From an uncultured cyanobacterium (GTDB lineage: Bacteria; Cyanobacteriota; Cyanobacteriia; Cyanobacteriales; Cyanobacteriaceae): a stretch of 64,000 nucleotides of DNA. Below, piece by piece: positions 1 to 29,413 of this stretch. Where the stretch lies: positions 1 to 64,000 of the forward strand of contig CAVQBA010000005.1 in assembly GCA_963710605.1 (NCBI GenBank), given 5' to 3'. How positions within the stretch are numbered: position 1 is the first letter of the stretch; every line of letters begins with the position of its first letter. The notes beneath the pieces were generated by a model that was not told the origin of the DNA, did not search any database, and was given only the letters and a program-made list of their open reading frames with translations. The position numbers and the translations under genes were made by a program.

Positions 1-2218
1 ATTCTCTTGAGCCTGTAAAAGCGATTAAATGAATATCAGGATGTTTGACTAAATAATCTCCCACTACCGAGCCTTTACCAGGAATATATTGAAAAACACC
101 TGCGGGGATACCTGCCTCTACCAATATTTCCGCTATTTTCGCCCCGATGACGGTACTAGTCGCCGCTGGTTTGAGTAAGGCACAATTACCTGCCACAAGG
201 GCGGCTACGGTCATTCCTGTAGCGATGGCAAAAGGAAAATTCCAAGGGGAAATAATGAAAGAAATTCCACGAGGTTGATAGAAATAACGATCGTTTTCTC
301 CTGCTACATCATAATTATAACCTTGGTCTAATCTTTCCATTTCCGAGGCATAATAAAGACAAAAATCGATCGCTTCGGATATTTCTGGATCGCCTTCTTT
401 GAGGATTTTACCAACTTCCAAACACATCCACGCATTCAACTCGTGTCTTCTTTGTTGCATAATTTCAGCGGCTTTACGTAAAACACCAGCCCTTACTCTA
501 ACCGGAGTTTTGCTCCAAGTTTTGAATGCTTGTTTGGCTGATTCCATAACCTCGTCTGCTTGAGCGATCGAAATTAAACCAATTTTACCTACCACTTGAC
601 TAGGGTTAGAAGGATTGACTGAATCAATATAATTATCTGTCTGGACATACTCACCGTTAATTAATGGTAAATATGTTTTACCCACTTGATTATTTACTTT
701 AGTTAGGGCTTGTTGTGCTGACAGTAATTCTTCTTCTTGAGCATAATCAGTATCAGCTACGCCAACAAATTTTGACGTTTCTAAGCCCCCCTTCCGAAGG
801 GGGGTTGGGGGGATATCTTCCTCTTGCGAAGTAGAGCTAGAAGGGATCTGTGTTTGAGGAGATGCGACTAATTCAACGATCGGTTTTTCTTCCATATTTT
901 GTCTTAAAAAGGAGCTATTCGCTGTATTTTCAAGTAAACGACGAATAAGATAAGCCATACCCGGTAATAGTCTGCCATAAGGTGCATATACTCTGACTCT
1001 GTATCCTTTTTTAACGATCGCTTTAGCTAAAGTTTCACCCATCCCATAGAGAATTTGACATTCAAAACGACGACGAGGAATTTGTAACTCTTCCACGATA
1101 GCTAGTGCATGGGCTTGGGTACGGACATTATGAGAAGCGATCGCCCCATATAAATACTCGTGATTTTCTAACAACATACGAGTTAATTGCTCGTAATTAA
1201 CATCGGTTTCGGGTTTGTCGTTAAATACTGGTTGTTGCCAGTGATTTTGCATCGCTTTGATTGTTTCTTGATCCCAATATGCACCTTTAACTAATCTAAC
1301 GGTGATCGGATTACCTCTTTTTTTCGCCCAATTAATCCAACTTTGTAAATCTGATTGCGAATCTCTTAAATAACCTTGAATGGTAACACCAATATCGGTA
1401 CGATTAACAAATTCTTCCTCCATTAACAATTCTTGCAAAATAGTAATGGTAATATTTTTGTAATCATATTGTTCCATATCAAAATGGACTGCCGCATCTT
1501 TTTCTTGAGCGTGTCTGAGTAAAGTACGGATACGATCGCATACTTGAATTTTACTTCCTTGAGGGTCGATCGGATCAAACTGAGAATAAAAAGCAGTTAG
1601 TTTAACCGATACTTGTACTTTAGGTAACTCCTCACCATCGGCGATATCAATCTCAGGTATCGTTGACCATTTTTGGGCTTGTTGAGATAGTTGAGTAATT
1701 AATTCGAGATAGCTTTGTAAATATGATTCGGCTTCTATTTCGGTGATAACTGCTTCTCCTAATAAATCGATCGTAAAGCCCATTTTTTCTTTACGCATTC
1801 TTTCGACTGCTTTAATTACCTCTTTAATAGTTTCACCAGAAATATATTTATAAGCAAGGGTTTCGACTGCTTTAGTAATTGTGGCTGAAGCGATTTGTGC
1901 AGGAGGGGTATTTGGTTGAGTAAAATTAAGAAGTCCTTTAAGGGCATCGGGTAATTCTACTTCCTCAGTGGTCAGATATTGTTGTAGATGACGGGCTATT
2001 TCAGGTTTACTTTGAAGGGCGGGTAAAGCATCAATGAAGCGAAATAGTTGCACTCTCAAACCGGGGTTAGCCATTGCCCAGTCCATTAGTTTATCATCGA
2101 ACTGCATTTGTTCTTTGAGTTTACTGAAGATATTGCCTTTTTTTCTGGTGGCTTTAATTAACTCTTCTGCTATTACTTGAGTTTTGGTTTCATAATTGTT
2201 AGTGGTAGAAACAACCAT
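1..2218 (-). CDS. putA: Bifunctional proline dehydrogenase / P5C dehydrogenase (3' end runs off the window)
   Basis: Not in the ORF track. ATG at 2218 with AGAGGA upstream; hand translation gives LRVQLFRFIDA, VRLVKGAYWD, YLIRRLLENTANSSF and ISPWNFPFAI (PRODH followed by ALDH). Confidence 0.93.
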   Translation of the reverse strand, partial: MVVSTTNNYETKTQVIAEELIKATRKKGNIFSKLKEQMQFDDKLMDWAMANPGLRVQLFRFIDALPALQSKPEIARHLQQYLTTEEVELPDALKGLLNFTQPNTPPAQIASATITKAVETLAYKYISGETIKEVIKAVERMRKEKMGFTIDLLGEAVITEIEAESYLQSYLELITQLSQQAQKWSTIPEIDIADGEELPKVQVSVKLTAFYSQFDPIDPQGSKIQVCDRIRTLLRHAQEKDAAVHFDMEQYDYKNITITILQELLMEEEFVNRTDIGVTIQGYLRDSQSDLQSWINWAKKRGNPITVRLVKGAYWDQETIKAMQNHWQQPVFNDKPETDVNYEQLTRMLLENHEYLYGAIASHNVRTQAHALAIVEELQIPRRRFECQILYGMGETLAKAIVKKGYRVRVYAPYGRLLPGMAYLIRRLLENTANSSFLRQNMEEKPIVELVASPQTQIPSSSTSQEEDIPPTPLRKGGLETSKFVGVADTDYAQEEELLSAQQALTKVNNQVGKTYLPLINGEYVQTDNYIDSVNPSNPSQVVGKIGLISIAQADEVMESAKQAFKTWSKTPVRVRAGVLRKAAEIMQQRRHELNAWMCLEVGKILKEGDPEISEAIDFCLYYASEMERLDQGYNYDVAGENDRYFYQPRGISFIISPWNFPFAIATGMTVAALVAGNCALLKPAATSTVIGAKIAEILVEAGIPAGVFQYIPGKGSVVGDYLVKHPDIHLIAFTGSRE
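783..814. repeat. Short dispersed CCCCCTT-n-AAGGGGG hairpin repeat, in frame inside putA
   Basis: AAGCCCCCCTTCCGAAGGGGGGTTGGGGGGAT; near-identical intergenic copies at 51216-51247 (reverse), 55210-55241 and 53766-53796. Confidence 0.85.
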
Positions 2219-2646
2219 CTTTATTTTCCTCTAATTTTATTTATATTTGTATTTATAGCGATCGAAATATACGATCGTAATCAAACTTAAGTTAGATCGT
2301 CAAAACAATTGACAAACCTATTATCAAAAAATATTTTCTTTTTTCTCGAATGTTAATTTTTAAAGATATAACTTGACAAATAGGGTTGAATAATATTCAA
2401 CCCCTACCAATATCGATCACGATCGTTAATTAATAATTGTCGGTATTTACTTTCAAACCAAATTTTTCTCTTTGAAAAGTATCAAATTGTGAATATAAGA
2501 ACAAACAAAGGAAAATATACAGAGGTAATAACCACTCATTAGCTTTAACTATTATTAAAATCCAAAACGCTTTAAAAGATGAGACGTAATACCCTTTATT
2601 TCTTGATAATTCTCTATTCTCCATTCTCAATTCTCCATTAATTTAC

Positions 2647-3234
2647 CTACCATGCAAGGTAAGGTAATTTTTCGCTTGTAGCTTGAATCTCGGCATTATT
2701 TTTGGTGAGTAAACTACAAGTATCCCACTTTCCAGAAACTAGCATATTTCTCGCTCCAGAATCGATTTTAACCGCACTACTATAACGTCCACATCTGACT
2801 TTTAAATCTTCTAAATCCAATATCATTGCAATTTGTGGATTTTCTTGAATCAAATTTTGAATACTTTTGATATTACTAGAAGAGGTAGTAACACAGGGAA
2901 TACCCATTGCTAAACAATTACCAAAAAAGATTTCAGCAAAACTTTCGCCGATGATAGCATCAATACCCCAACGGGCGATCGCTTGTGGTGCATGCTCTCT
3001 ACTCGAACCACAACCAAAATTATCATTAACAACTAAAATATTGGCGTTTTGATATTTTGGTAAATCAAAAGGATGTTTTCCTTCTAATCCTTTTCGATCG
3101 TCAGCGAACACTTGTTCTCCTAAACCGTCAAAAGTAACGCAACGTAAAAAACGAGCAGGAATAACTCGATCGGTGTCTATATCATTACCAACTAGAGGGA
3201 TGCCAGTTCCCTTGATAACCTTTCTTTCACTCAT
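2647..3234 (-). CDS. leuD: 3-isopropylmalate dehydratase small subunit
   Basis: DIDTDRVIPARFL and NFGCGSSREHA motifs. Confidence 0.96.
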   Translation of the reverse strand: MSERKVIKGTGIPLVGNDIDTDRVIPARFLRCVTFDGLGEQVFADDRKGLEGKHPFDLPKYQNANILVVNDNFGCGSSREHAPQAIARWGIDAIIGESFAEIFFGNCLAMGIPCVTTSSSNIKSIQNLIQENPQIAMILDLEDLKVRCGRYSSAVKIDSGARNMLVSGKWDTCSLLTKNNAEIQATSEKLPYLAW

Positions 3235-3471
3235 ATATAATCAACAAATTTTTTACCGACTAATCTTGTAATTATAGAGCATTTTTTACCAAATAATTAT
3301 AGATAACAAATAACAGTGCCAAGAGTGCCAAGAGTGAACAATTACTAATGACGATTGGTTGATTGACGATCGTGATCAGGGAAAAAATCTTGAAAATGTA
3401 TTAAATGTAAGTAAAACAAAACAAAAGCCTCAGCTATACTAAAAAAGACGCTATATATAAAAATAATATTT

Positions 3472-5046
3472 ATGAAAACACAGCTAATAGAAAGACAAAA
3501 ACAAATCTTGAATTTAAAACAAGAAGAATTTGACTGTCTCATAATTGGCGGTGGTGCGACAGGTAGTGGTTCGGCCCTAGAAGCCACTCGAAGAGGTTTA
3601 AAAACAGCTTTAGTAGAACGTTTTGATTTTGCTCAAGGAACTAGTAGTCGTAGTACCAAATTACTTCATGGTGGAGTACGCTATCTTGAATTGGCTTTTA
3701 AACAATTAGATTTAGGTCAATTAAATTTAGTTAAGGATGCTTTATCAGAAAGAAAAAATGTCATTGAAATGGCACCTCATCTAGCTAAACCGATGCCGTT
3801 GATTATTCCTTTATATCAATTTTGGCAAATGCCATATTACTTTGCCGGTTTATTTCTTTACGATTTACTTTCGGGTAAACAAAGTTTAGGTAAAAGCAAA
3901 GTATTAAGTCTTAAAAAAACTCTTGAGTTATTTCCTTCTTTAAATACTGAAGGCATGATTGGTAGCGTCATGTATTATGATGGACAATTTGATGATGCTC
4001 GTTTGAATGTAGAAGTAGCTATGTTGGCGATCGATAATGGTGCTTCGATTGCTAATTACATTGAAGTTGTCGATATCATTAAAGAAAACGGTATTTGTCG
4101 TGGTGCTAAGGTTAAAGACGCTCTAACTAATGATGAATTTGTCATCAAAAGTAAAGTAGTGATTAATGCCACAGGACCTTATACTGATTCTATCCGTAAA
4201 ATGGACGCTCAAGAAGCTAACAAAATTCTTAAAGTAAGTTCAGGCGCACATATTGTGATTGATAAATCTTTTGCCCCTGGGGATGGAGCGTTATTAATTC
4301 CTAAAACAGAAGATGGTAGAGTTATTTTTATTGTGCCTTGGCGTGAATTTACTTTAGTTGGTACAACAGACGAAGCGGCAGAAGTTACAGATAATCCTCA
4401 AGCAACTGAAGCCGATATTGAATATTTACTGAAATATGCCAATTTATATCTTGAAGACTCAGTTACTCGTCAAGATGTGTTATCGGCATGGAGTGGCTTA
4501 CGCCCGTTAGTTTCTCCTGCTCATGCTGATTCGACTGCTAAATTGTCTCGTGATCATACGATTATCACCTCAGCATCCAAATTAATTACCATCACAGGGG
4601 GTAAATGGACTACTTTCCGTAAAATGGCGAAAGATGCTGTTAATGAGGTGATGAAACAATTGTCTAAACCTACTTCTCCTGCTTTACCTGTAACACCTGT
4701 AGCTGGAGGGCAAGACTATAATCTAGAAAAATTAAATTCTTCATTATCAGAAACGATCGAAGCTGAAGATATTAAAAAGCATTTAATTGATTATTATGGC
4801 TCTCGTAGTTTGGTAATTCAAGAAATAATGAAAGACAAAGGTATTGAGCGTTTAGACTCTAAATATCCTTTCACCACCGCCGAGGTAATTTATACTTGTC
4901 GGTACGAAATGGTAATCAATGCTGATGATGTTTTGTCTCGCCGTTTTAGATTGAGCTTTATTGATGCTAATACTAGTCAGAAAGTCAAAGCAAAAGTTTT
5001 ACAATTAGTAACCGAAGAACGAAAAAGCTTCGATTTAGTTAGTTAA
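3472..5046 (+). CDS. glpD: FAD-dependent glycerol-3-phosphate dehydrogenase
   Basis: IIGGGATG, GTSSRSTKLLHGGVRYL, YYDGQFDDARL, GGKWTTFRKMA. Confidence 0.93.
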   Translation: MKTQLIERQKQILNLKQEEFDCLIIGGGATGSGSALEATRRGLKTALVERFDFAQGTSSRSTKLLHGGVRYLELAFKQLDLGQLNLVKDALSERKNVIEMAPHLAKPMPLIIPLYQFWQMPYYFAGLFLYDLLSGKQSLGKSKVLSLKKTLELFPSLNTEGMIGSVMYYDGQFDDARLNVEVAMLAIDNGASIANYIEVVDIIKENGICRGAKVKDALTNDEFVIKSKVVINATGPYTDSIRKMDAQEANKILKVSSGAHIVIDKSFAPGDGALLIPKTEDGRVIFIVPWREFTLVGTTDEAAEVTDNPQATEADIEYLLKYANLYLEDSVTRQDVLSAWSGLRPLVSPAHADSTAKLSRDHTIITSASKLITITGGKWTTFRKMAKDAVNEVMKQLSKPTSPALPVTPVAGGQDYNLEKLNSSLSETIEAEDIKKHLIDYYGSRSLVIQEIMKDKGIERLDSKYPFTTAEVIYTCRYEMVINADDVLSRRFRLSFIDANTSQKVKAKVLQLVTEERKSFDLVS

Positions 5047-10157: not shown

Positions 10158-10414
10158 GTAGGAGTGTAATGTTGTTGCCACTGGTGTCAACTTAAGCTTA
10201 AGCCCCACCCTGAATTAGCATTCAGGGCTAATATGTAGTCCGTTTAATAAATTAAACTCAAGATTTTTTACCCAATTTACTCAACCTTGAGTTCATGAAT
10301 AATGAACAAATTTTATTAGCCTTGCACGACAGTTCAAGGCAGGGCTTAAACTATCGTCAGACCGATAATAATTGTGTCTTCATTTGACACGAGTGAAATG
10401 TGCTACGCCCCTAC
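10158..10414. mobile_element. Nested small repeats: GTAG-type REP-like palindrome split by a MITE-like element (10179-10395)
   Basis: Inverted ends CACTGGTGTCAA / TTGACACGAGTG; outer halves GTAGGAGTGTA and TGCTACGCCCCTAC match the intact palindrome at 52086-52114. Confidence 0.65.
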
Positions 10415-10449
10415 AAGGGTATAATGACAATAAAAATTAGTTATCTTAT

Positions 10450-11327
10450 TTATATTTCTTCCCAACCACTCACACCAGAAGACATCATGTAACTAGTTAC
10501 ACTCGCTTCAAAAAAGTTAGCTTTGGTATTACCTTCTTTTTTGGTGTCAGAAAATTTTTCTAGATGAGTATAAGGACTTTTCGCATAAATAGCGTCTTTG
10601 TATAAAGGCTCTAAACCGATCGCTCTTAAACGAATATTCGCCATATATTTGGTATAACGTTCTGTACTAGAAGAGGTAATCCCTAATATATTGTTACCGA
10701 CAATGTGGTCAGTCCAACGACATTCGTGTTCTACGGCGGTGGCAAACATTTCATAAATACGATCGATCGAGTAATCAAAAGTTTTCATCGCTTCAGGAAT
10801 CAATTTTTGATACAAACGGACGTGAGATAATTCATCACGATTGATCATTTTGAAAATATCAGCCGAACCTGGCATGAGCATTCTAGCGGCAAGATTATAG
10901 AAGAAAATAAACCCGTTATAAAAGTAAATTCCCTCTAAAAGATAGTCACCCATTAAAGCCGTGAAATAGTTTTCTTGAGTAGGTTCGTCGATATACTTTT
11001 GATACATACTCGCAATATACTCACAACGCTCTTTTAAAACCTCATCAGTACGCCAAAATTCATAAACTTTGTCACGTCGATCGCTTGGTATAATTGTTTC
11101 GATCATGTATTGATAAGCGTGGTTGTGCATTCCCTCTTGAGAAATCTGTTCTGCCATACACAAGCTAATTTCTGGAGCAGTGATTGAACTTTTAAGATGA
11201 GGAATATTACATGTTTGTACCGAGTCTAAAAAAGTTAGGTATGATAAAATACCTTCAAATGCTCGACGTTCAGCAGTGGTTAAATTCCAATAATCGGTTA
11301 CATCTTGAGTTATGTCTAGTTTTTGCG
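10450..11327 (-). CDS. nrdB: Class I ribonucleotide reductase beta subunit, exon 2
   Basis: (P)QKLDITQD, LTFLDSVQ, QEGMHNHAY, LEGIYFYNGF, RDELSH, NFFE; in frame with exon 1 after intron removal. Confidence 0.92.
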
Positions 11328-13840
11328 GTTAACCTAAGCTCGAACCTCACGGCTTGAACTCGGCTTCAAAACGGTACGTGACACTTTCATGTCATACCGC
11401 TCCTCTCGATAATAGCTACACATTTACTTGTGCAACATCTTAGTGTATTCTTTGATGACAGTGTTTATGGACTAATACTAGATTGTCCTTTTTATTACTG
11501 CCTCCATCTTGGACTGGAGTTACGTGATGAATATCGGTGGAGTCGTCCCACATTATTCTAGTATCACATACTTTACAATTGAACTTTTGTTCTTTATATA
11601 GCTTAGATTTTAATGTGTCTTTGCCATATAAGATACGTAAATTTCTTTCATTCCAGTATTTTTCATCTCCATCATAAGGGCTTTTATTTCCTTTGATTTT
11701 GACGTGTTTATCACCAGCTTTGAATTTATCATGAGTTTTAAGGAGTTCGTTTTCTCCTTTAAATTCCCACTTTCTACCATTAATGGTTGTCCAGTATTTC
11801 TTAACTACCCAGTCTGTACCTTTATTCCTGTGTCTTCTAACTGCCCATCTGAGCAGTCTTTGCCATAGTATATGGTTTAATTTACTGAAGGTTTGTTTGG
11901 AGTTAGAATATCGGTAATAGTTACACCATCGGGTAATCTTTCTTTGTAATGAATTAATCAAATAGTCTTGGTTAATTCCATTCCCTTTAGTAATTAATTG
12001 AGCTAGGCTCTCGTAGTGTTCTTTGATTGCCTCTTTGGAAGGTTGAATATATGTTTTATATCCTAATTTCGTTGTTAAGACTCCATTAGAACAGGAATTG
12101 CTGTGCTTTTTCCCTTTTTCATATTGTCTGATGTTAAATCCTAAAAAGTCTAGCCCTGGTTGATTTCCATTGTACTCATAACGAGTATGTATTATTTTGG
12201 TATTGCTTTGTTTTAGGTTTAATCCCCATTCTTTTAGCCAGTCACCAATTAATTCCTTGCATTTTTCGACTATTTTGATGTCTTCGCAAAGTATCACAAA
12301 GTCATCGGCATATCTAATCAATGTAGGTTTTGATATTTTATAACCATAATTACGTTTGGACATACTAATATATCCTTCTTTGGTGGCTGGAAAATGGTGT
12401 TTTATTAATTCTTCCATTCCATGTAAGGCTATGTTGGCTAATAAAGGCGATATTACTCCTCCTTGTGGTGTACCTTTATTCGGTTTTAATTCACCTCCAT
12501 TTTCGAGTATTCCGCTTTTTAACCATGCCTTAATTTGTCTTCGGAACATGGGTATCTGTGTTACCTTCTTGACCAATTTTTCGTGATCAATTTGGTCAAA
12601 GCACTTTCCAATATCTGCATCTAATACATATTTAGGTTTGTATGTGATGTTTTTTTTGATTGCTTCAATCGCATCCCATGCTCCTCTGTGAGGTCTAAAT
12701 CCATACGAGTTAGGTTCAAACCTAGCTTCCCATTCTGGTTCTAATGCCATTTTCATTAATGCTTGTTTGGCTCTGTCTCTCATTGTGGGAATACCTAGTC
12801 CTCGATTCTCACCGTTTTTCTTAGGAATCCAAACTCTACGTATTTTGTCAGCCTTAGAATCGATATTTAGTTCTTGTACTAATTCGGTTCTTTGGGTGGG
12901 TGTTAGAAGTTTAATCCCATCTACCCCTGCTATTTTTTTTCCCTTGTTGTCTTGAGAGACTTTCCTTACAGCTATTAATTTAGCTGACATCGATTTAGTT
13001 AATAATTTCTGGAGTTTTCTAGCTAATACCAAGTTTCTACTTTGAGATGCTCTATATATCCTACGTTGCAACTTCAAGACTACCGACTGGGCTTTTTGCC
13101 AATCGGTTTGTCTCCATTCAAACTTTGATGTGATTTCCATACTTGTCATGTTGATTGCTTTTTGTAGTTTATAGACTATTTTCAAGTGAGTCTTTGGGCA
13201 TATTCTCACCATTACAATGAGACGTTCGCTTTAAACTCAATCCTTCACCCAATGGGCTTACGCTAGTTACTTCTCTTTTATAAAGAGAGCCATCTTGGGT
13301 TTCACTCGTTCCTATATTTCTTTGTCTGTAACCTTAGAATCTATCTCTCTGCCGAGGACTTTTTATTTGAATCTCGATATAGGGGATACATCCTACATCA
13401 CATTGTCCTGTGGTCATATTTCGACCCTAGTGTCTCAAATTCTTTCACTAGTCAACTTTGACGACAGTTGTCATGATAGTTCGCTTTCGCTATTCATAGT
13501 TACCTACCAAATTCACACTTTTGATTAAATTTATCTTGTAGTGTAATTTTAAATCCCGCTTTACCATTAAAAATTACTAGCTCCTAATGATAGGGAAGTG
13601 GTTTTCACTCCGAGATTGGGAGGAGAGGATTTTAACCTCTAAGAAATATAAGTTGTCAAGGTTCGGTTTTTACTACCTTATTTTTGCGGTAATCCGCATT
13701 AGGTTGTGTAAAAAATTCTTTTTAATACACCTTCTGATCGGTAATTATTATCGAGTACCTTGCTAGGGTTTAGCTACTCTTAAGTATAAGGCTTCTAGCC
13801 TTATACAATAAGAATAGTTCCTACCCTAAACGAGTCGCAC
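11328..13840 (-). mobile_element. Group II intron inserted in nrdB (2513 nt)
   Basis: 5' GTGCGACTCG; domain V GAGCGGTATGACATGAAAGTGTCACGTACCGTTTT; domain VI ending GGTTAAC; removal gives FWI-P-QKL. Confidence 0.95.
11440..13149 (-). CDS. ltrA: Intact intron-encoded RT/maturase/HNH endonuclease (start 13149 preferred over 13212)
   Basis: GIPTMRDR, FEPNSYGFRP, GTPQGGVISPLLANI, RYADD, domain X, CKVC and HHVTP..GGSN..NL..H..CH. Confidence 0.93.
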   Translation of the reverse strand: MTSMEITSKFEWRQTDWQKAQSVVLKLQRRIYRASQSRNLVLARKLQKLLTKSMSAKLIAVRKVSQDNKGKKIAGVDGIKLLTPTQRTELVQELNIDSKADKIRRVWIPKKNGENRGLGIPTMRDRAKQALMKMALEPEWEARFEPNSYGFRPHRGAWDAIEAIKKNITYKPKYVLDADIGKCFDQIDHEKLVKKVTQIPMFRRQIKAWLKSGILENGGELKPNKGTPQGGVISPLLANIALHGMEELIKHHFPATKEGYISMSKRNYGYKISKPTLIRYADDFVILCEDIKIVEKCKELIGDWLKEWGLNLKQSNTKIIHTRYEYNGNQPGLDFLGFNIRQYEKGKKHSNSCSNGVLTTKLGYKTYIQPSKEAIKEHYESLAQLITKGNGINQDYLINSLQRKITRWCNYYRYSNSKQTFSKLNHILWQRLLRWAVRRHRNKGTDWVVKKYWTTINGRKWEFKGENELLKTHDKFKAGDKHVKIKGNKSPYDGDEKYWNERNLRILYGKDTLKSKLYKEQKFNCKVCDTRIMWDDSTDIHHVTPVQDGGSNKKDNLVLVHKHCHQRIH

Positions 13841-14030
13841 GAATCCAGAAATTCTCCCGCATTTGTTGATACAAACCGATCGCCCAAGAATAACGGACAT
13901 CATTTAGTTGCATTAAGTTTGTTGTATTACCAAACCAAACACTTCTATTTTCGATCGCGTCGTCTCCACTGGGATTAAAAATAGGAGTCAAAGGCATTCT
14001 TTCTTCGATTCCTTTTGTTGTGGATACCAT
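13841..14030 (-). CDS. nrdB: Ribonucleotide reductase beta subunit, exon 1
   Basis: GNTTNLMQLNDVRYSWAIGLYQQMRENFWI, then one nucleotide before the intron GTGCG. Confidence 0.9.
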
Positions 14031-15144
14031 AGAATAAATAAGTAAAAAAAATTGCTATACAAATAAAGATTATACCCAATATTCTCTATTTTATTTACTG
14101 TCCAAAAAATTAAATAATTAATTTGCTTTTTAATTACTTTTTGTGCTATGCAATCTATTTATATAATCAAATTGAAGTTAGGAGATATTTTAATTTAGAT
14201 TAGACTAATTCGTCAAATTTATAATCAACAAATCTTTCTTTAGTATTAGATTGAAAAATATTATTTTATAACTAATGTAGCAACGAATACAATCACTTAA
14301 TTAAAAAGAAGGTTATAGTAAGAAAGTAAATAGACAGTTTATCAATCAAAATAACCTACGAATTGATACATCAACCTATAGACCCTAAATACGATTAATA
14401 AACTGCGGGATAAGCGATACAAGTATAATATATTTATCAGAAAATAGTCAGGATAACATCTATTACTCTTAAATTATTACTCACGATCGTTACTTACTAA
14501 GTAAAATCATCTCTCTTCAAGTTAACAATTTGATAAGTAAGCCAACTGATTCAATAATAAGTTTATCTAAAAGATAAAAAGGTTATTTTTTTTACAAGCT
14601 TAATATAATTAGTTAAATAAAACAAGTAATAAAAAGTATTAATTATTAATTAATATTTACTTCAAGTATAAATAAAGATAAAACAGTATTTAAATTATTC
14701 AATTTCAGGATTTATCATTATTATATTTAACTATATTACTAGTCTAAAAAAGATAAGATTTTTTCTGATATTTATATTAACTTTTTATGAAGATACGATT
14801 AATTGAGCAAATTAGATAATAAATGGTATTAATAGATAAAACTAAATACTTAGTTATTTGATTTGCAACCGATAGAGAGATAAATAGAGTTGATAATCGT
14901 AGCAATAAAAACTTACTCGTTATAATTAGCAAGGTCGATAAATTATCACAGCCAATAAAGTTAAGACGGACTTTAATCTTAGCAGGATATTAACAGAAAA
15001 TATCTAAAAACAAGTCTTGAATTGAGTCATTAAATTTTGTCAGTAATCGTTATACCAGTAAATGATATAATTTGCTCTGGACGTTAAGACGATCGGCACT
15101 TGTCGGTACTGCTTGAGCGAGAGTAAAATTCATCAGACAAAAAA

Positions 15145-17544: not shown

Positions 17545-19991
17545 ATTAAACTAAGCATAGGAGTCGCCTCCTACACTCGTCTTCAAAACCGTGCTTGAAA
17601 GTTTCCCTTCACACGGCTTTTCTGATAATAAACTCCTTTTCATGGATACGAGTCTTTTTAAACTTCCATCTCTGGTAGTCTTGATGTCATGGCAATGTCT
17701 ATGAAGTACTTGTAGATTATTGTATAAGTCCTTTCCTCCTTTGGACTTAGGAATTTTGTGGTCTATTTCTAGTAAGTCTCCATCTTTAAAATTATGTTCA
17801 CAATGATTACATTTTCCTTTTTGGTTCTTGAGTAATGTTGCCATTCTTGTTGAAACTTCAGGATGTTTGCCAATTCTAGCCGTCCAGTAAATCCAATCTC
17901 CGTCATAAGGTGATTTTTCTCCTCTGACTTTAGAATGTCGTTTGATTTTGGTCTCTGAATGGCTCATTGATTTTGTGCCATTATAATTTTCATCTCTGGT
18001 TGAGAACACCCAATTTTTTAATCCGTATGTGTGCCAATAATTCTTGACTACCCATGTTTTAGATTTTATTGGGATGTCTCCTTTCACTCCATCTTTTGAG
18101 TTGTTGATAGACTATATGGTCACATTTGGAGTAAGTCTCCTTGCTACACTTTGTTCTGTAATAGTTTGCCCAACCTCTGATAATAGGATTGAGTTCTCTA
18201 ATTAGAGCTGTCTGTGGTGATGATTTGTGTTTCCTAATAGTATCCCCAATCTTCTTGATATGGAGTTTGATTTTGTCCTTTGATGGTTTTATGATAGTTT
18301 TAAATCCAAGTAGCACACTATGAGTTGATTTCCCTGTGTGTGTTTTTCCAACTTCATATTGTGGGATATCAAATCCTAAGAAGTCAAAACCTGTGCTTCC
18401 TTCATACCTATTTAGTGTATGAGAGATACGGGTTTTACTTGGTTTTAATTCTAGACCGATGTCTTTTAACCAGTTTTCCATAATACTTTTACATTGGTGG
18501 ATAACCTCTAAGTCTTTATGAAGAATCACAAAGTCATCGGCGTATCTGATGAGAGAGATGCTTCTCTCGTTATTTCTCTTGAGTACCCTTTCCATGTTCT
18601 GGCAAATTTTTTGATTTCCAATTCCATACCGTGAAGGGCTATATTAGCTAATAATGGGGAAATTACACCTCCCTGTGGTGTGCCTTCTTTGGTAGGAGAG
18701 AATTTTTGCTCGTCCATGACTCCTCTTTTTAACCATGATTTAATCTCACGTTTTAGCTGAGGATAGGTTTCAAGTTTTCCAAGTAATTTCTCATGGCTTA
18801 TTTTGTCAAAGCACTTAGCAATATCCGCATCTAACACAAACTTCGGTTGATACCTGATTGCATTAAATATCGCTTCTATTGCATCATGACACGACCTTCC
18901 TGGTCTGAATCCGTAACTATTTGGCTCGAATTTGGATTCCCATTGTGGTTCAAGTGCTAATTTGATTAACCCTTGTTTGACTCTGTCTTCCATACAGGGT
19001 ATTCCCAGTGGTCTTTTTTCTCTGTTAGGTTTTGGTATCCATACTCTGCGAGTCGGTTTGGATTTACCAGTTAGCTTCAGTTGACCTACTAATTCAAGGC
19101 GTTGCTTTGGGGTTAGAGATTTAATTCCATCCACACCAGCTGTTTTCTTTCCTTGATTATCCTGTGTAACCTTTCTAGTTGCTAAGAGTTTTCCATAATA
19201 GGATTTGATAAGTAATCGTTGTAAATTGTGAACCAATTTTGTATTGCCGTTTTGACTCGCTCGATATATTCTTTTTTGTAATCGGAACGTCTCTGTCTCA
19301 ACTTTTTTCCAGTTGATAGCATTCCAGCTTCCGAATCCAACTCCTTTACGGTATTGTGTTCCTATTCCTTCTGAGATATTCACTTTATCAATCAGCGTTG
19401 CTGTTGTCATAATTTTCGTACAAAAGTTGACTATATCTTGTTTATCACAGTGTCCACGTCTGCATATCCATTACGTTACATAATGGCTTTAGCTTTTTGG
19501 ACAATCTTACACTCCATAACCTTACGCTGGTTACTGCTCATTGATTACTCTTTGAGAGGTTATGAGGGTTTTCCCGTTCCTTACTTCCTTTTATCTGACT
19601 TTAGACTCCTTCTATCCACCGCCCTATATATTTGACTCCAGTTCAGTCACACAAAACTGCTGGTACATTAGAGATTACCTTTTGGTCTAGCCTATCAGCC
19701 TTTTGGCTAGTTAATCATAACGATGGTTCAGACGAAGATTTGTATTCCTAGTCGTGGTCAGTGTGCTAGATGGGATTCCAGTTTTAGGCTACCAGTTACC
19801 ACCATTTAATCGAGCTTCAATGTATGGTTTACCAACACCAAGTCATTATCGATTATGCTGTCACACGGTCAATCGTGGGTAGGATTTACACCTACAAGGA
19901 AAGTAAAGTTGTCAAGGTACATTGAATGTAAACCTTGCCTAGCTTCCGTTTTGGCTATTTAGCCTAGACTTTTGCTAGAACAAGATTGCAC
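17545..19991 (-). mobile_element. Group II intron inserted antisense to the host gene
   Basis: 5' GTGCAATCTTG at 19991; domain V AAGCCGTGTGAAGGGAAACTTTCAAGCACGGTTTT; 3' end GTTTAAT; removal joins GGT AAT|TAT GGA GAT. Confidence 0.9.
17551..19410 (-). pseudogene. ltrA: Intron-encoded RT/maturase/HNH broken by two frameshifts (~18580, ~18065)
   Basis: Three consecutive ORFs: RT0-4; YADD plus domain X; HNH (CNHC, IDHKIP..GG..NL..HRHCH). Confidence 0.9.
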
Positions 19992-20168
19992 TATGGAGAT
20001 GATTTGATAACTCTGGGAGCAAGATATGTTTTTGAGCGATTAAATTTTAATTTGACACAGACATTAGAAACAGCCGAATATGTTTTACTTAACGGTGGAG
20101 GAAGATTTAATAGTTTTTGGTCTGATGGTAATATTGATATTAGACGCTATCGCGAAAAAATCCCGATT

Positions 20169-20331
20169 TATAGTTATTTCAATTTAGACTGAGACATTAA
20201 TATTGAGAGAAAAAACTTAAGTATTAAACCCGCCTTGCAATTTCCTTGACAAGGCTAACAGAATCCGTTTAATAAATTAAACTAATATTTAATTCGTTAA
20301 AATTGTCTCATTGTTATTTTAAATTACTATA
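20169..20331. mobile_element. MITE-like element with TATAG..CTATA inverted ends at a TA target
   Basis: Imperfect terminal inverted repeats TATAGTTATTTCAATTTAGACTGAGACA / TGTCTCATTGTTATTTTAAATTACTATA; related copies near 34743-34853 (reverse) and 54925-55032. Confidence 0.75.
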
Positions 20332-22607
20332 CCCATTATCATGGGCCTACAAACTTATAAGTTTACCGAAGCGATCGAATCTGAATTTAGAGAAGTGTGT
20401 CAAATCAGTTCAGCACCTATTATTCTTTTTGCTCGTGAGAATATTAGCTACCAAAAATTATGTGAGATGAAATTACCGAGTAATGTAGAAATTCACCATA
20501 GTCAGGATCTCGCTTTTGAATTGGAAGGAAATTCATTTATTGAACAAGCTAAACAAAATAGCACAGATGAATATGTGTTACTTTGTTTGAGACTCGACAG
20601 AGAATCAAGTTCTTTTTTAATTAAGCAATTTTTTGAATGGCAACAAATGGTAAAGAAAAAAGAGAATTTTAATTTTGTCAAACGTGTGTTATCCAAAACT
20701 CAACGAGTTGCTCGCCCTTTAATTTGGCGTTCTACCTGTAATAACATACTAAGTAAATATGATCTGGAAGATTTACCTTATATTCATAAAGACGTTTCCT
20801 CTGAAGCTCAAAATTTTGAAGACTTTTGTCATCAAATAGAAAAAGCAGCATTTATTATGACTGAACGTGCAATTCGATTTGAGCTAAAAGCGTTACAGAG
20901 TGCACTCTGTAACGCGTGGGTTCAGCAAAAAAAGAGATCCTAAGCGCTCATCTCTTGTAACTATTTTGTTGTTTCCTAAAGGAGGAAAATTCGGGGTTAA
21001 TCAGGAAAATTCACTAGGTAAAAACCTATTGAAATACCTGCGAGAATTACGGCATTACCCTTAGCACTTAGATTATTAGATTAGTTATCAAAATGTTAAA
21101 GCAGGGTAAAAAGGGAACTGAGAGGAAATTTCAACCTCAATAGTAAACGCAAGCCAATCAACTACGACTAGCGAAAGCAAACTTCTGTCATGAACTCTCA
21201 AAACGTCAAAGTGGTGAAAAGAAATTGATACACCACGTCCAAAAGGGATAAGGAAAAAAAGTAGGGATATATTCGGGTTACCTACACCGACCTCTAAAAT
21301 TATCTTGGGAGACAGGAAGAGTCTAAGGCGGATGTACCCAACAGAATGGAACGAATTAACCCCAAACTGGTTCTAAAGGATGAAAACATCATTTAGTAGT
21401 CACAAACTTAAGGCATACACCTAGAGTGGGAATGAGATGAGGTAAAAGCCAACGCCTTACTGTAATGGTAATGGATATGCCCACGTACCCGGCAAATTTA
21501 AATAATGGAGTTTTGAGTAGTAATGAATACAGCAAAAACGAGTTTCAAGACTACGTACGCATGGAACACTATACGTGAGCGAAGGTCGAGCAATTGTACC
21601 TTTCAAGTTGCAAAAGAAAATCCATCAAGCGGTCAAATCGGGACAAAATGCGAAAGCTCGTAATCTCCAAAAGCTATTACAAAAGTCATATTTTTCAAAG
21701 CTCTTAGCGGTACGTAAGGTGTCCCAAGACAACTCAGGGAAGAAAACTGCTGGTGTTGATGGTGTTAAATCATTGACTCCTAATCAGAGGTACAAACTGG
21801 TTGATAAAATTGGTGAACATCACAAATCAAAACCGCTACGTAGGGTGCGGATACCTAAAGCTAATCGTAATGAAAAGCGTCCATTAGGAATTCCAACAAT
21901 GCGTGATAGAGCGAAACAAGCCTTGGTGAAATTAGTCTTAGAACCTTACTGGGAGGGCGATTCGTTGAAGTAAGGAGCGTCTAGAAACTAGACAGGTATG
22001 TACTTCTAGGGGATGGTGGAGAGAAAACCACAAGTACCCTAAACTGTTTGTTTGATGAGGGTGAAAGTCCCTCCCATAAAGAGAAATGTGACTCCTTACC
22101 TGCCCACAGTGACCTGACTCGGAATTTAGGAGGCTGAAGCTGGGAACTAGGACGCAATCAGAGACTAAACAGATAAGTCGCACTGGCGTTAATAGGGAGA
22201 CGACACGAGTAAACAGGTTCTATAAAAGTGTCTTAATGGTTGTCTATCCATCTGAAAACAAAAGGATAAGAACAAATCTTCTCACTCTCACCACGTGTTC
22301 CCAGGACAGTGGTATTCTCTGAGAGGAAGATAGGCAAATTGAACCACTCTAAACCGTCAAAATAATCGAACAAACGGAACGAAAAAAAACAATGAACTTG
22401 GTCTTAAGGGTCGAAACTTAAGTAGGCTAGACGAGCAGTACAACTCCAAGCATTGGGTAGGATGAGGCGTAATTGCCAAAAGGATATCAAACAATGTTCA
22501 ATTAAGTAATCTAGGAATTATGACGCAGTTAAAAAAAAACTAGCGATGATTGGCAACAAATCGAGTGGCGTAAATTACGACAAGATTTGTCAGACTACAG
22601 AAGCGAA

Positions 22608-24976
22608 GTGCGACCTGAACTGATTGACTAAATTGAGGTGTTAAACCTCTCTAGGATTTCTACCCTAGACTCACATAGAGTAATCCGTTATCAAACGGTA
22701 CGTCACATTAAGAGTAAGTAATGAAATTAATGGAGTGCAGACGCTAGAAGTAACCATAGCTGGAAGGAACTATCTGGTGAGGTGCAAGTGGGACAAGTAA
22801 AAGGAAGAACGAAAGTGAAGTTATGATTAAACTGCGTTATTGTAGAATAGGTCAAATTGTTCCTGATAGACCTAAACCAAAAAGGTAAGTGGGCGACATT
22901 TGAGGTTTCGTTTCTCAAATGTGTAGAAACAAAATTCCCACCGCAGAAAAGTAACCTTCCTAATTACTTAATAAACTTTAGTCGATACAACAGGGTAAGC
23001 CCTACAAGGTCTAAAAGGGAAATAAATAAACCAATTAGTAAGCTGATGAGTAATCGAAGCCGAATTCTTTGGAGGGTATAGGATGAGCGAAAAAGCGAAT
23101 GTCAATTTGTAATGAATTGAATAGAGGTTCAAAATTTGCCTCGGACCGAAAGGAAAGCAGAATTCGTTTAGGTCACATATGAAATTGAAAACTTTAGAAG
23201 GATTGGACTCAATGAAAAGTTGGATACATCAACCTGATGTAAATGGACAACGAGAACAATTGACTGATTGGAATCAAATTAATTGGAAGAAAGTCAGGAA
23301 AATTGTTAAATCACTACAGAGAAGAATATTTCGTGCAAGAAAGCTAGAGCAGTGGAAAAATCTACGAAGATTACAGAAGCTGTTAAATAAATCGTATGCC
23401 AACGTATTGCTAAGTGTTAGACAAGTTACACAATTGAATCATGGTAGAAATACTGCAGGGATTGACGAACAAGTAGTTTTAAATCCAGCTGAAAGAGTGA
23501 AGTTTGTCGATAACTGGCAAGAAGAAAAATCGAAACCCACGAAAAGAGTGTACATTCCCAAGTCAAATGGCAAAAGACGACCCCTTGGAATACCGACTGT
23601 AAAAGATAGAGTTGAACAGGCAATAGCTAAGAATTCACTCGAACCTGAATGGGAGGTAATATTCGAGCCTAATTCATATGGGTTCAGAAAAGGAAGAAGT
23701 TGTCAAGATGCAATAGAACAATGTTTCCTTAACTTGAAACAGGGAAGGCATAAGTGGATATTAGATGCGGATATTGAGGGCTTCTTTGATAACGTCAGAC
23801 ATGAAACAGTATTAGAACTAATTGGTTCTCATCCATCGAGAAATAAAATCGAAGGGTGGTTGAAAGCAGGATACACCGAAAATGGAAAACATTATGAGAC
23901 AACCAGAGGAACACCTCAGGGTGGAATCATAAGCCCATTATTAGCAAATATAGGACTACATGGATTAGAAAACCTAATCAGAAAAGTCAAACTGCCAAAA
24001 GACAAATGGGGAAATAGACCTAAATTAGGGTTCTGTCGTTACGCGGATGATTTTATAATCACTGCGGAAAATAAACAAAGGCTCTTGCAGATACAAATAC
24101 TGGTAAATGGTTGGTTAAAAGAAAGAGGCTTGAAATTAAGCACGGAAAAAACACGGATAATCCACATAAATGAAGGGTTTGACTTTCTAGGTTTTAATCT
24201 TCGTCATTATGACGGAAAATTGTTGATTAAACCGCAGAAAGAAAAAGTACTACAATTCTGTAAAGAATTAGGTAAAACTATAAAAACTTGTGCCTCGTGG
24301 AAACAGGAAAATCTAATCGCTAAAATCAACCCTATGTTAAGAGGGTTCGGTAACTATTATAAAGGAGTGGTTAGCAAACGAGTTTATAGCTATATAGATA
24401 GTAGGACATTCAGATATCTTTTAAGGTGGGCGAAACGTAGGCATCCGATGAAGTCTATGACATGGATAAAGAATAGATATTTTCCAAGAAAAGAAAAACA
24501 GGAATGGAACTTTGCGTGTCAGTACGAAGGTAGAAAAGGTAAAAATATAGAGAAAGTTCTGTATGATATCTCGAAAACAAAAATAGTACGTCATGTAAAA
24601 GTAAAAGGGTCTAATTCACCTTTTGACCCAGAACTGTCGGAATATTGGGAGAAACGTCGATGCAAAGAGAATAAACAAATATGGGCAAAGGGTTCATTAT
24701 ATGAAACACTAGCCAAGAATCAAAATTATAAATGCTCTTTGTGCGGTGAATTTATTATCAATGGAGAAGAGACGGAAGTTCATCATATAGTACCTGTGAG
24801 TGAAGAGGGCTTGAATCATATAAGCAACCTAGAACACTTACACAGGAGTTGTCATAAGCAGGTACATGGACGAACTAGTAATCGAGCTTGAAGTGTGGCT
24901 TGAGCCACATGAGCTGAGAGGCTCACGTGTGGTTCTTAGAGGGGTGAGGACTGGTAACAGTTTAATCCTACTCGAC
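22608..24976 (+). mobile_element. Group II intron C nested in the RT gene of intron B (innermost, apparently intact)
   Basis: 5' GTGCGACCTG; domain V GAGCCACATGAGCTGAGAGGCTCACGTGTGGTTC; 3' ACTCGAC; loop TTCGTT (22907-22912) pairs with exon AGCGAA. Confidence 0.93.
23179..24891 (+). CDS. ltrA: Intact intron C RT/maturase/HNH endonuclease
   Basis: RPLGIPTVKDR, GTPQGGIISPLLANI, RYADD, CSLC, HHIVP..NLEHLHRSCH. Confidence 0.93.
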   Translation: MKLKTLEGLDSMKSWIHQPDVNGQREQLTDWNQINWKKVRKIVKSLQRRIFRARKLEQWKNLRRLQKLLNKSYANVLLSVRQVTQLNHGRNTAGIDEQVVLNPAERVKFVDNWQEEKSKPTKRVYIPKSNGKRRPLGIPTVKDRVEQAIAKNSLEPEWEVIFEPNSYGFRKGRSCQDAIEQCFLNLKQGRHKWILDADIEGFFDNVRHETVLELIGSHPSRNKIEGWLKAGYTENGKHYETTRGTPQGGIISPLLANIGLHGLENLIRKVKLPKDKWGNRPKLGFCRYADDFIITAENKQRLLQIQILVNGWLKERGLKLSTEKTRIIHINEGFDFLGFNLRHYDGKLLIKPQKEKVLQFCKELGKTIKTCASWKQENLIAKINPMLRGFGNYYKGVVSKRVYSYIDSRTFRYLLRWAKRRHPMKSMTWIKNRYFPRKEKQEWNFACQYEGRKGKNIEKVLYDISKTKIVRHVKVKGSNSPFDPELSEYWEKRRCKENKQIWAKGSLYETLAKNQNYKCSLCGEFIINGEETEVHHIVPVSEEGLNHISNLEHLHRSCHKQVHGRTSNRA

Positions 24977-26621
24977 TTTATAAAGCGGTTCAAGTTGAAG
25001 ACATGGCGAAAGCTAAACGGCTACAAAGACTAGTCATGAACTCCTTTGGTGCAAGAATGTTAGCAATCCGACAGGTTACTCAACTAAATAAGGGCAAGAA
25101 AACAGCGGGTGTCGATGGTAAAACAGCGTTAAGCTTTGAGGAAAGATTCAACCTTGAAAAAGACCTTAAAAGCAATGCCAAACACTGGAAACATCAGGAA
25201 TTAAGAGAAGTAATTATTCCCAAAAAGAATGGTAAAACTCGTACATTGAAAATTCCTACCATCGCTGAGAGAGCATGGCAATGTTTAATTAAATTCGCAC
25301 TTGAACCAGCTCATGAAGCAACTTTCCATGAAAGAAGCTACGGTTTCAGAACTGGCAGAAGCACTCACGACGCTCAAAAGTATATATATACGAACTTGCA
25401 GAGCAATCACGGCGGTATCCAGAAGCGAGTACTCGAATTAGACATAGAAAAATGTTTTGATAGAATAAATCATGAATCAATACTTACAAGGGTAATATCA
25501 CCCACCTTCATAGTCAACGGATTACGGAGGTGTCTAAAAACAGGTATAAACCCAAAATTCCCCGAACAAGGAACGCCACAAGGAGGAGTGGTCAGTCCGC
25601 TATTAGCAAATATAGCACTAAATGGAATAGAAACCATAGGGCAAAGTGTAAGGTACGCCGATGATATGGTATTCTTCTTGAAACCAAAAGATGATGAGAA
25701 TCTGTTGTTGGAAAAAGTTAGCACATTTCTTGCAGAAAGAGGAATGAATGTCAGTAAAAGTAAGACGAAAGTGACAGCCTCGATAGATGGATTTGACTTC
25801 TTAGGATGGAGATTCTTCGTTCAAAGTAACAACGGAAAGTTTAGAAGTACTCCCTCAGAGGAGAATTTTAAGGCATTCCGAGATAAAGTGAAATTCATCG
25901 TCAATAACTCGAATTATGGAGCACAAATCAAAGCCGAAAAACTCGCATCAGTAGTAAGAGGATGGCGGAACTACCACAAATACTGTAAATTAGACGGCTC
26001 TAAGTTCGACTTATGGGCAACAAAATACAGAACTTTTAAAGTGTTCCTAAAACAAAAAACTATTAACAGGTATCAAGCCTTAAAACTAGTAAAAAAAGCA
26101 TTTCCTGAAATTGGATACAGCGAGAATAAATTTGTAAATGTCAAAGGTAAAAAATCACCATATGATGGAGACCTAACTTACTGGTCAAAAAGAAACAGTG
26201 CCTTATATGACAACGCAACTGCTAAAGCTTTGAAGAAACAAAACCATTCATGCGTCCGATGTGGATTAAAACTCATATCAGATGAAACTATACATTTACA
26301 CCATGTAGATGGAAATCATTCCAACTGGAAAACTAAAAACTTAGAGGCAATTCACCAAAGTTGCCACCAATTGGAACACATGAGCAAAAGCTGTAAAAGC
26401 TAAGATATTCGGGAGCTGTATGCCACGAAAATGGCACGTACAAATCTAACTGAGAGGGTCGGGGCATAATAGCCTCACTCGACTCAACCAGCAAAATTTG
26501 AAGGAACTAGTTATGGTTTTAGACCAGCTCATTCTGCACACGATGCTATCGAAAAGATATTCTCCTCTATCAAACAAAAGCCCAAATGGGTGTTGGATGC
26601 CGATATTGCAAAATGTTTTGA

Positions 26622-28219
26622 GTGCGATTCGTTCAGTCGAAACCTAGAGATAGGGGGATGACTGGCAAGACTACTAAGTAACCCTTGGGTTGAGTTCGCA
26701 CTTTAATCCTTAGTAGTTTAAACCTTGACAACTTCATAGTCTTATAGGTGAGTATGAGTACCCTAGAAAATACAAGTCCTATCTTTCAGACGCAGAAATG
26801 AAAACAATTTCCTTACGGTAGCGACTAGCCATCAATCCGTAAAGCAGGAAATAAAGCGGAAACAACGACTATTAGCCTAAAATGGTCAACCGTAAGTAAG
26901 TCTGTATGGATAACAAAAGTGAAGTCACTGTCAGATTTATCGTGAATTTTAGGTAGTGAAAAGGCTGATACACTACTTGAACCAAAATGGTCATAAGAAA
27001 AGGGTGAGATAAGAAATCGAATCTATATCTCAAGCATTACCCTAAAACTCGGTAAAGAGGTGACATCCTAACCAGACAAAACAAAGACAATGAGGAACGA
27101 AGTAACCACTTTATTACTCTCCTATTCTTGGTCAAAGGACAGCGTAGCACTCAGCTAAGACGTAAAATATGTAGCAATACAGGTAGTAGAGTGTGAAGAT
27201 TGGGTTAAAAGCCAAAGCCTACTGTAATAGGTAGGATATGCAGACGAACCCACGATGATATGGAATAAATAGCTGTAATTCAAGAGTACATACATTATGA
27301 CCACTGATTCAAAACAGAAGGATAAATTAAATAACTGGCGTGACATCAAATAGAAAGATGTAGAACGTCAGGTATGGAAGCTCCAAACACGGATATTTAA
27401 AGCATCTCGTTGTGGTGATGTCGTAAAGGTACATAAACTCCAAAGATTGTTGTTAAGTTCAAACAATGCGAAATTACTTGCCGTTAGAAAAGTGACTCAA
27501 GATAATTCAGGTAAAAAGACAGCAGGAGTGGATGGGGTTAAATCACTGTCCCCAGTAGCACGTCTGAGACTTGTAAAACAACTCAAATTGGGTTTGAAAG
27601 CGAGACCAACCCGTAGAGTATGGATACCCAAACCAAACGGGGAAAAAAGACCGCTCGGAATACCAATCATGAGAGATAGAGCATTACAGGCATTAGTTAA
27701 ACTAGCATTAGAACCCGAATGGGAGGCACTCTTTGAACCAAATAGTTATGGATTCAGAATTGGTCGCTCGTGTCACGATGCCATTGAAGCTATCTATTGT
27801 GCCATCAATAAGAAGTCAAAATATGTCTTAGATGCTGACATTACAAAGTATTTTGAACGTATCAATCATAAAAAATTATTGGAAAAGGTTAACACCTATC
27901 CAACAATGAGAAGACAATTAAAACAATGGCTTTGTAGTGGCGTAATGGACGGTAAGAATTTATTTTCAACAACTGAAAGAACACCGCAAGGCGGATTTAT
28001 TTCACCCCTTTTAGCAAACATAGCGTTACACGGATTAGAAGACTTAATCATGAATCTTGCTCCTAAATTCAATATGAAGGATAAAAGAGGAAGACAATTA
28101 GGTAAAAGAGATAAGTTAAAATCTATCTCACTAATTCGATATGCTGATGACTTTGTTTGTCTTCATGAGGATAAAGAAGTAATTAATTCGGTAAAAAAGG
28201 AAATAGAAATATGGTTAAA
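26622..28219 (+). mobile_element. Group II intron D (5' part) in the RT gene of intron A; RT ORF from 27297 has a TAG at 27351 and is cut off by the IS
   Basis: 5' GTGCGATTCG directly after DADIAKCF-GA; loop TCGAAT (27017-27022) pairs 5/6 with exon TTTTGA; RT0 to YADD present. Confidence 0.88.
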
Positions 28220-29379: not shown

Positions 29380-29413
29380 AATAATGTAGTAATGACAATA
29401 CCCATGTTATTGA

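Follow-up and report, generated by a model that had tools for sequence, protein, structure and literature searches.

A putatively splicing-competent group II intron in the only nrdB gene found in the genome of an uncultured cyanobacterium

The present study examined a 64,000-nucleotide window of an uncultured cyanobacterium (contig CAVQBA010000005.1), in which nrdB, the gene for the small subunit (R2) of class I ribonucleotide reductase (RNR), is interrupted by a group II intron. We consider it likely, with a probability of roughly 85%, that this is a mobile and splicing-competent intron in the only nrdB gene of the genome and that RNR depends on its splicing. The window comprises bases 1–64000 of contig 5 of a 7-contig, 3.93-Mb assembly with 33% G+C that is 84.9% complete, and the best-named protein relatives of this genome are Geminocystis and Cyanobacterium. 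The arrangement of nrdB and the intron is not a chance pattern. Feature coordinates are listed in Table 1.

Exon 1 starts with an ATG at 14030 and its 3' end reads TTCTGGATTC at 13841, while exon 2 opens with CGCAAAAAC at 11327. The intron between them runs from GTGCGAC (from 13840) to GGTTAAC (to 11328); its 3' terminus, GCTTAGGTTAAC at 11328, is followed by CG CAA AAA CTA GAC in a frame that stays open to the stop at 10450. The exons, joined by script from their coordinates, gave 1068 nt, which corresponds to 355 aa plus a stop, with FWIPQKL across the junction. The insertion point lies after the first base of codon 64, one codon past the conserved Trp of the FW motif (between FWI and P). 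Of the 24 relatives with nrdB, 21 have an uninterrupted gene with which the spliced 355-aa product aligned in tblastn searches as one full-length high-scoring segment pair (76–90% identity). The junction window QMRENFWIPQKLDIT contained no gap in 20 of the 21 uninterrupted loci, and L006 showed a one-residue offset. Because the alignments were full length and the junction window was ungapped in relatives, the splice junction is fixed to the base.

The match of exon 2 to the Pfam family Ribonuc_red_sm (PF00268) covered profile positions 28–277 of 281, and the N-terminal remainder of the profile lies in exon 1. The segments FLDS, QEGMHNHAY, LEGIYF, and RDELSH (the D, ExxHxxxY, E, and ExxH motifs) are all kept and aligned with the solved R2 chains 6zjk and 7ail. 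We take residues of these motifs to be the di-metal ligands and the radical Tyr, as in the R2 protein of E. coli. The public protein collection holds only two nrdB fragments from this 332,074-bp contig, one of 235 aa (11157–10453) and one of 69 aa (14030–13824), and no full NrdB; the 69-aa open reading frame (ORF) called for exon 1 extends 7 codons into the intron. Several proteins of 62–64 aa labelled RNR beta chain, from metagenome contigs, belong to the same protein cluster as the exon-1 product. These short proteins probably derive from exon 1 of further nrdB genes with an interruption at the same site.

The intron RNA is well defined at its 3' end. Domains V and VI scored 51.0 bits against RF00029 (E 2.5e-8; gathering score 40), and domain V scored 56.7 bits against the plastid-type model RF04357 (gathering score 53). 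RNAalifold of the 3'-terminal 85 nt from five orthologous introns predicted 30 pairs, 8 of them with changes on both sides. Domain V contributed 15 pairs (5 changed on both sides) and domain VI another 15, several of them with compensatory changes, and the bulged A of domain VI was invariant in all five. This A, at 11335, is 7 nt before the 3' splice site, with 4 bp and then 3 nt beneath it, which is the canonical branch-point geometry. In a manual fold of domain VI and in its Rfam alignment, the bulged A lay 12 nt before the 3' terminus; the five-orthologue fold, with its canonical 7-nt spacing, superseded this placement.

The 628-nt 5' part of the intron has a minimum free energy (MFE) of -167.8 kcal/mol (z = -6.13 against 20 shuffles). 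In its distal half of domain I (intron positions 330–628), identity to Crocosphaera orthologues is 75–76%, and RNAalifold predicted 69 pairs there, 11 of them with compensatory changes. UAUGA (13498–13494) and CUAAG (13337–13333) are conserved in 4 of 4 sequences and resemble the GAAA tetraloop receptor. The intron-encoded protein (IEP) contains no stop in its 590 aa, and its RVT_N, RVT_1, GIIM, and HNH domains all exceeded the Pfam cut-offs; its true start may be an internal Met at codon 22. Searches of the genome with blastn found no further copy of the intron above ~68% identity. A chloroplast-like (IIB-type) group II intron, with the subclass label putative, is the best explanation of the element, which is apparently complete and very probably functional. 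An intein was rejected, since the insertion is out of frame and contains RNA domains. An insertion sequence was also rejected: there is no transposase and there are no terminal repeats, and the borders are exactly GUGCG...AC.

An earlier reading of the window, made from the letters alone (hereafter, the sequence-only reading), had proposed an nrdB gene split by a group II intron at 11328–13840, an exact exon join across FWIPQKL that gives a 355-aa R2, intact metal-ligand and radical Tyr motifs, and a complete-looking intron protein with domains V and VI. It had also predicted that automated annotation would miss the full gene and had called for a survey of relatives for intron-free alleles. 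The results described above agree with each of these proposals, to the base in the case of the intron borders, and the survey recovered intron-free alleles.

The sequence-only reading had further identified the GUAUCC loop (13389–13384), in an 8-bp stem, as a match to the exon. This loop is exon-binding site 1 (EBS1); it pairs at 5 of 6 positions with the intron-binding site 1 (IBS1) GGAUUC and lies in a hairpin that the MFE fold of the 5' part reproduced. The homologous loop reads GAAUCC in the Crocosphaera locus L033, where it pairs 6/6 with the IBS1 GGAUUC, and GUGUCC in L069 and L088. Since the L033 loop is the perfect complement of IBS1, the position of EBS1 is confirmed. A synonymous ATA codon in the exon would, as proposed, pair with EBS1 at all six positions, yet this codon is uncommon: of the 22 relatives whose group II site is empty, 19 carry TGGATTCC, and ATC, ATA, and TGGGTTGC each occurred once. 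A tentative EBS2, AGAAUU (13443–13438), was assigned by sequence reading and pairs 5/6 with the exon AUUUCU.

The consequences for the cell hinge on the inventory of RNR genes. A profile search of the genome returned a single match to PF00268, which was the present gene, and there was no second nrdB. PF02867, the large-subunit profile, matched two loci. One is an intact nrdA of 770 aa at contig 7:204275–206584 with the C-terminus CTACAN. The other, at contig 4:1016275–1018507 (L003/L188), is 93% identical in protein to the intact copy, has a frameshift at residue 101/102, is missing 23 residues at the N-terminus as well as the C-terminal Cys pair (CxxC tail), and continues in frame into a long ORF of unrelated sequence; it has the appearance of a pseudogene. 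Profile searches found no separate nrdJ and no nrdD in the assembly, which is 84.9% complete. All 19 family relatives have one class I large-subunit locus and none has a separate class II gene or nrdD; 16 of the 19 reach a completeness of 90% or more with contamination of 5% or less, and the large-subunit gene of G016 is split over two contigs. Counting the window genome, with its additional decayed copy, a single class I large-subunit gene is present in 20 of 20 genomes of the family and nrdD in 0 of 20. Because no other R2 and no other class of RNR was found, we infer, on good grounds, that deoxyribonucleotide synthesis depends on the splicing of the nrdB intron. The sequence-only reading had suggested this dependence and had asked for nrdA, a second nrdB, and nrdJ; the dependence is supported, although by inference only.

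Two further observations concern nrdA. In the relative G002 (contig 1:768517–771849), nrdA is one open frame of 1114 aa that matches NrdA in two pieces (1–473 and 446–770), which suggests an in-frame intein. Furthermore, blast searches of the genome with the nrdA locus gave side hits to a ~120-bp repeat that is dispersed over all contigs in more than 50 copies (73–86% identity). It has its reference copy near contig 7:207036–207159 and resembles a miniature mobile element.

The intron is absent from all 18 family relatives with nrdB, and the best IEP identity in family-representative genomes was 54%. Among species-representative genomes, an IEP scan yielded 49 loci, of which the two closest are in Crocosphaera metagenome-assembled genomes with an intron at the same nrdB site. 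Same-site introns with identical boundaries were found in these two, L033 (JBFRWG010000012) and L069 (JASJEA010000037), and in the metagenome loci L088, L089, and L161, three among the 80 metagenome loci kept. The closest IEPs were P0002 from a metagenome (73%) and P0003 (71%; Cyanobacterium sp. IPPAS B-1200), neither of which turned up among the loci of the species-representative, metagenome, or family scans. In a 26-row IEP tree, from which L043, L058, and L061 were dropped (longest ORF <400 aa), all five nrdB-site IEPs fell in one 12-row clade with an SH-aLRT (approximate likelihood-ratio test) support of 100, and none of the 13 IEPs from loci without NrdB was inside it. The window IEP, P0002, and P0003 form a group that is sister to the Crocosphaera group. 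These patterns look like an intron lineage known to date from this one nrdB site alone, in the window genome and Crocosphaera.

The introns of L033 and L069 share with the window intron the insertion point, the boundaries, the EBS1 hairpin, and the architecture of domain VI, with identities of 68–76% for the RNA and 59–62% for the IEP. Unlike the window intron, they belong to another host family and differ in the first ~330 nt; a 57-nt extra hairpin is found in the window intron only. The L033 intron is also a twintron, in contrast to that of the window: within 1633–4004, an inner group II intron, with its own IEP (2294–3895) and a domain V at 3928–4004 (64.8 bits), is inserted in codon 51 of the outer ORF. 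In L069, nrdB has three exons; a second group II intron (1220–3359) at codon 38/39 carries its own IEP, which is 38% identical, and a 59-bit domain V. In L089 (JAAUYD010246489), an inverted partial duplicate of the intron 3' end and the first 73 codons of nrdB exon 2 (1570–1896) lies upstream of the full copy.

The FWIP region also receives group I introns. Four genomes of three families (G013, G015, G089, and G120) have mutually homologous insertions of 888, 448, 792, and 288 nt, respectively, between TGGAT and ACC, 2 nt upstream of the group II site. The G120 copy scored 68.2 bits against the Rfam model Intron_gpI, above the gathering score, and the other three scored 29–34 bits; the G013 copy encodes a LAGLIDADG_2 endonuclease (8.5e-25). 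In an even sample of the order (251 genomes, 105 with an nrdB match), 24 of the 105 nrdB genes were interrupted, 5 at this site and 19 elsewhere, and G099 was ambiguous and is not counted among the 24. The 19 genes split elsewhere are broken near the ExxHxxxY, E, and ExxH motifs, and all five that were inspected (G030, G153, G164, G209, and G239) had group I matches, those of G153 and G164 above the gathering score. Up to two group I introns occur per nrdB, with HNH_3 or LAGLIDADG ORFs or none, as in L192 (G153), L193 (G164), and L032 (G030). Judged from these sequences, the nrdB genes of this cyanobacterial order are a hot spot of group I intron insertion.

Constraint on the exons was assessed with L006 omitted from the dN/dS (nonsynonymous to synonymous substitution ratio) and branch-length analyses for its length difference. 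Pairwise dN/dS of the exons against relatives was 0.03–0.06, with dS saturated in 13 of 25 comparisons. Only three unique substitutions were detected at near-invariant columns of NrdB (F167Y, N270D, and L292M), and all are conservative. We read nrdB as a probably functional gene with a modestly faster rate.

If the intron splices as its anatomy suggests, the pre-mRNA would be transcribed through the intron, and the intron RNA would fold with the aid of its own reverse transcriptase (RT)-maturase. EBS1, and EBS2 weakly, would pair with the last 6–12 exon bases, after which the 2'-OH of the bulged A at 11335 would attack the 5' splice site. The freed exon 1 would then attack the 3' splice site past GGUUAAC, giving a ligated mRNA for the 355-aa R2 and an intron lariat. 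The intron may spread or persist by retrohoming into the highly conserved target TGGATTC/C.

Several observations weigh against a mobile, splicing-competent intron on which RNR depends. A search for sequencing runs, RNA or DNA, that cover 10300–14200 listed none. At 84.9% completeness, a second RNR could sit in unassembled DNA. The EBS1–IBS1 helix contains a U-U mismatch at exon position -2, and a search for EBS2 through complementarity and through covariation with IBS2 among three orthologues gave no convincing candidate and no clear covariation; the putative EBS2–IBS2 pairing is weak at best. An Rfam search of 10400–14100 at E <= 1 detected no D1–D4 group II family, with models that cover only some classes, and the first ~330 nt of the intron are strongly divergent from the Crocosphaera orthologues. 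Moreover, the end branch of the window NrdB is 0.25 against a median of 0.032, and this protein is 3–5 identity points further from other genera than those are among themselves, which is not the case for NrdA. The long branch could reflect some relaxation of constraint.

Part of this evidence would also fit an insertion that inactivated nrdB and left a young pseudogene, with RNR supplied from the unassembled ~15% of the genome or by a partner organism. The incomplete assembly, the long NrdB branch, and the EBS1 mismatch are in line with inactivation, as are the decayed genes (the contig 4 nrdA copy) and the many intron remnants of this genome. However, both exons are open, their join is exact, the catalytic motifs are intact, and no more than the three conservative unique substitutions have accumulated. 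The intact nrdA partner has been retained, none of the 19 family relatives has an RNR beyond class I nrdAB, and an intron in nrdB with intact exons persists in several Crocosphaera genomes. We regard inactivation as improbable. An artefact, in which repeated intron sequence was misassembled into nrdB, is hardly credible: although the genome contains 12 RF00029 matches and the window a cluster of intron fragments, there is no close copy of the intron elsewhere in the genome to mislead an assembler, the independent assemblies of L033, L069, L088, and L089 show the same junctions, and the boundaries restore the frame to the base.

A reading to which we give rather more weight, while still doubting it, is that the intron splices but has lost its mobility, and is now a fixed, vertically inherited element whose protein acts as a maturase only. 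The single copy in the genome, the mismatch of EBS1 to its own site, and IEP subclades that mirror host families (the window IEP with the Cyanobacterium sp. protein and Crocosphaera as sister) point in this direction. Against this, the IEP retains an intact HNH endonuclease domain and YADD motif, the intron is missing from every family relative with nrdB (18 of 18), and the perfectly matching site TGGATTCC stands empty in 19 of 22 relatives. So patchy a distribution is explained by homing-driven gain no less well than by many separate losses. We favor a mobile, splicing-competent intron, its current mobility being predicted from the intact endonuclease and RT domains and from this distribution.

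We also speculate, with very little confidence, that the mismatched EBS1–IBS1 pairing keeps splicing sub-maximal, thereby throttling the supply of R2, and that the FWIP site is contested by homing introns. A U is opposite exon base -2 in three of the four orthologues examined. If this were true, conditions acting on ribozyme folding or on the maturase level would limit R2 supply and with it dNTP synthesis and replication, and occupancy by the group II intron would destroy the target of the LAGLIDADG group I intron 2 nt upstream, and vice versa.

The window contains a cluster of other group II intron copies and fragments (17545–29713). The sequence-only reading had argued that dependence on splicing would explain why the nrdB intron is intact while its neighbors decay. 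This argument fails because a neighboring intron also looks intact and because the need of the host for splicing would not preserve an HNH endonuclease. The neighbor in question (22608–~24990) has GTGCGAC at 22608, a 570-aa protein with RVT_N, RVT_1, GIIM, and HNH (23179–24891), and a domain V at 24900–24976 (59.5 bits), and appears to be nested in an older IEP fragment (21575–21973). Three other neighboring introns are truncated or frameshifted. Outside the cluster, the window encodes an IsrR antisense RNA, and an isiA gene is therefore implied on the opposite strand.

Table 1. Features of the interrupted nrdB gene, its intron, and other elements in the window
Feature	Position	Strand	Details
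nrdB exon 1	13841..14030	-	63 codons and base 1 of the Pro-64 codon; 3' end ...TTC TGG ATT C; residues 1–63 placed by tblastn of the spliced protein, align with relatives
nrdB exon 2	10450..11327	-	last two bases of the Pro-64 codon, codons 65–355, stop; PF00268 3.6e-58
Group II intron	11328..13840	-	2513 nt; single copy in genome
5' splice-site consensus GUGCGAC	13834..13840	-	identical in orthologous introns of L033 and L069
Ribozyme domains I–III, 5' part ahead of ORF	13213..13840	-	MFE fold; orthologue covariation in distal half
Tentative EBS2 hairpin CUAGUG/CACUAG	13427..13451	-	13-nt loop; in MFE fold, conserved in orthologues
EBS1 hairpin	13376..13399	-	8-bp stem GATGTAGG/CCTATATC, 8-nt loop; in MFE fold of the 628-nt 5' part
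IEP, 590 aa	11440..13212	-	ORF 13212–11443; RVT_N 33–115, RVT_1 129–361 (YADD), GIIM 397–474, HNH 546–590
Domain V	11368..11403	-	AGC triad 11401–11399, 2-nt bulge, GAAA loop; Rfam and alifold
Domain VI	11331..11365	-	15-bp helix, bulged branch-point A at 11335; alifold
Frameshifted IEP in three ORFs	17551-19410	-	domain V 17545–17621
N-terminally truncated IEP, 466 aa	25003-26403		no Pfam HNH match; weak domain V 26411–26488
RT fragment, 263 aa	27447-28238		
Further domain V	29637-29713		
IsrR antisense RNA	41382-41568	-	Rfam 186.7 bits, full length

The present case appears to be a clean example of an essential bacterial gene that can be expressed only by way of group II splicing. One nrdB site hosts an apparently dedicated intron lineage in two cyanobacterial families, and about a quarter of the nrdB genes in the order sample are interrupted, mostly by group I introns at metal-ligand motifs. 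Because gene callers cut nrdB into fragments of 69 and 235 aa, annotation pipelines would score such genomes as being without a complete RNR small subunit, and completeness estimates and metabolic reconstructions would be misled. Full-text literature searches, whose coverage did not extend to the list of interrupted RNR genes of cyanobacteria in Supplementary Table S8 of PMC2853384, turned up no account of a cyanobacterial nrdB with a group II intron. What is new is nrdB as the host gene, the intron lineage seemingly confined to this nrdB site, and the group I introns 2 nt away in relatives. The pattern of group II introns in cyanobacterial RNR genes is already known, and there is no new mechanism here.

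The closest known system is nrdJ (RIR) of Trichodesmium erythraeum. According to Table 2 of PMC4143802, split reads show that the group II introns of Trichodesmium nrdJ are spliced in vivo. The sequence-only reading had started from the premise that bacterial group II introns mostly avoid housekeeping genes; this holds with a cyanobacterial exception, namely nrdJ, dnaN, and thyX of Trichodesmium (PMC4143802). The Trichodesmium nrdJ resembles the window nrdB in being an essential cyanobacterial RNR gene broken by maturase-encoding group II introns that need splicing. It differs in encoding a class II, B12-dependent, single-chain enzyme and in also carrying inteins, whereas the host gene in the window encodes the class I small subunit and has one intron at a different, unrelated site. 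RNR genes are a recognized refuge for selfish elements, and PMC2504315 and PMC1995217 describe group I introns in the small-subunit genes of phages T4 and RB3 (nrdB) and Bacillus (nrdF IVS6). These are self-splicing mobile introns in a conserved motif of an R2 gene, as is, in all probability, that of the window. However, they belong to group I and spread through homing by a DNA endonuclease, while the window intron is a group II retroelement.

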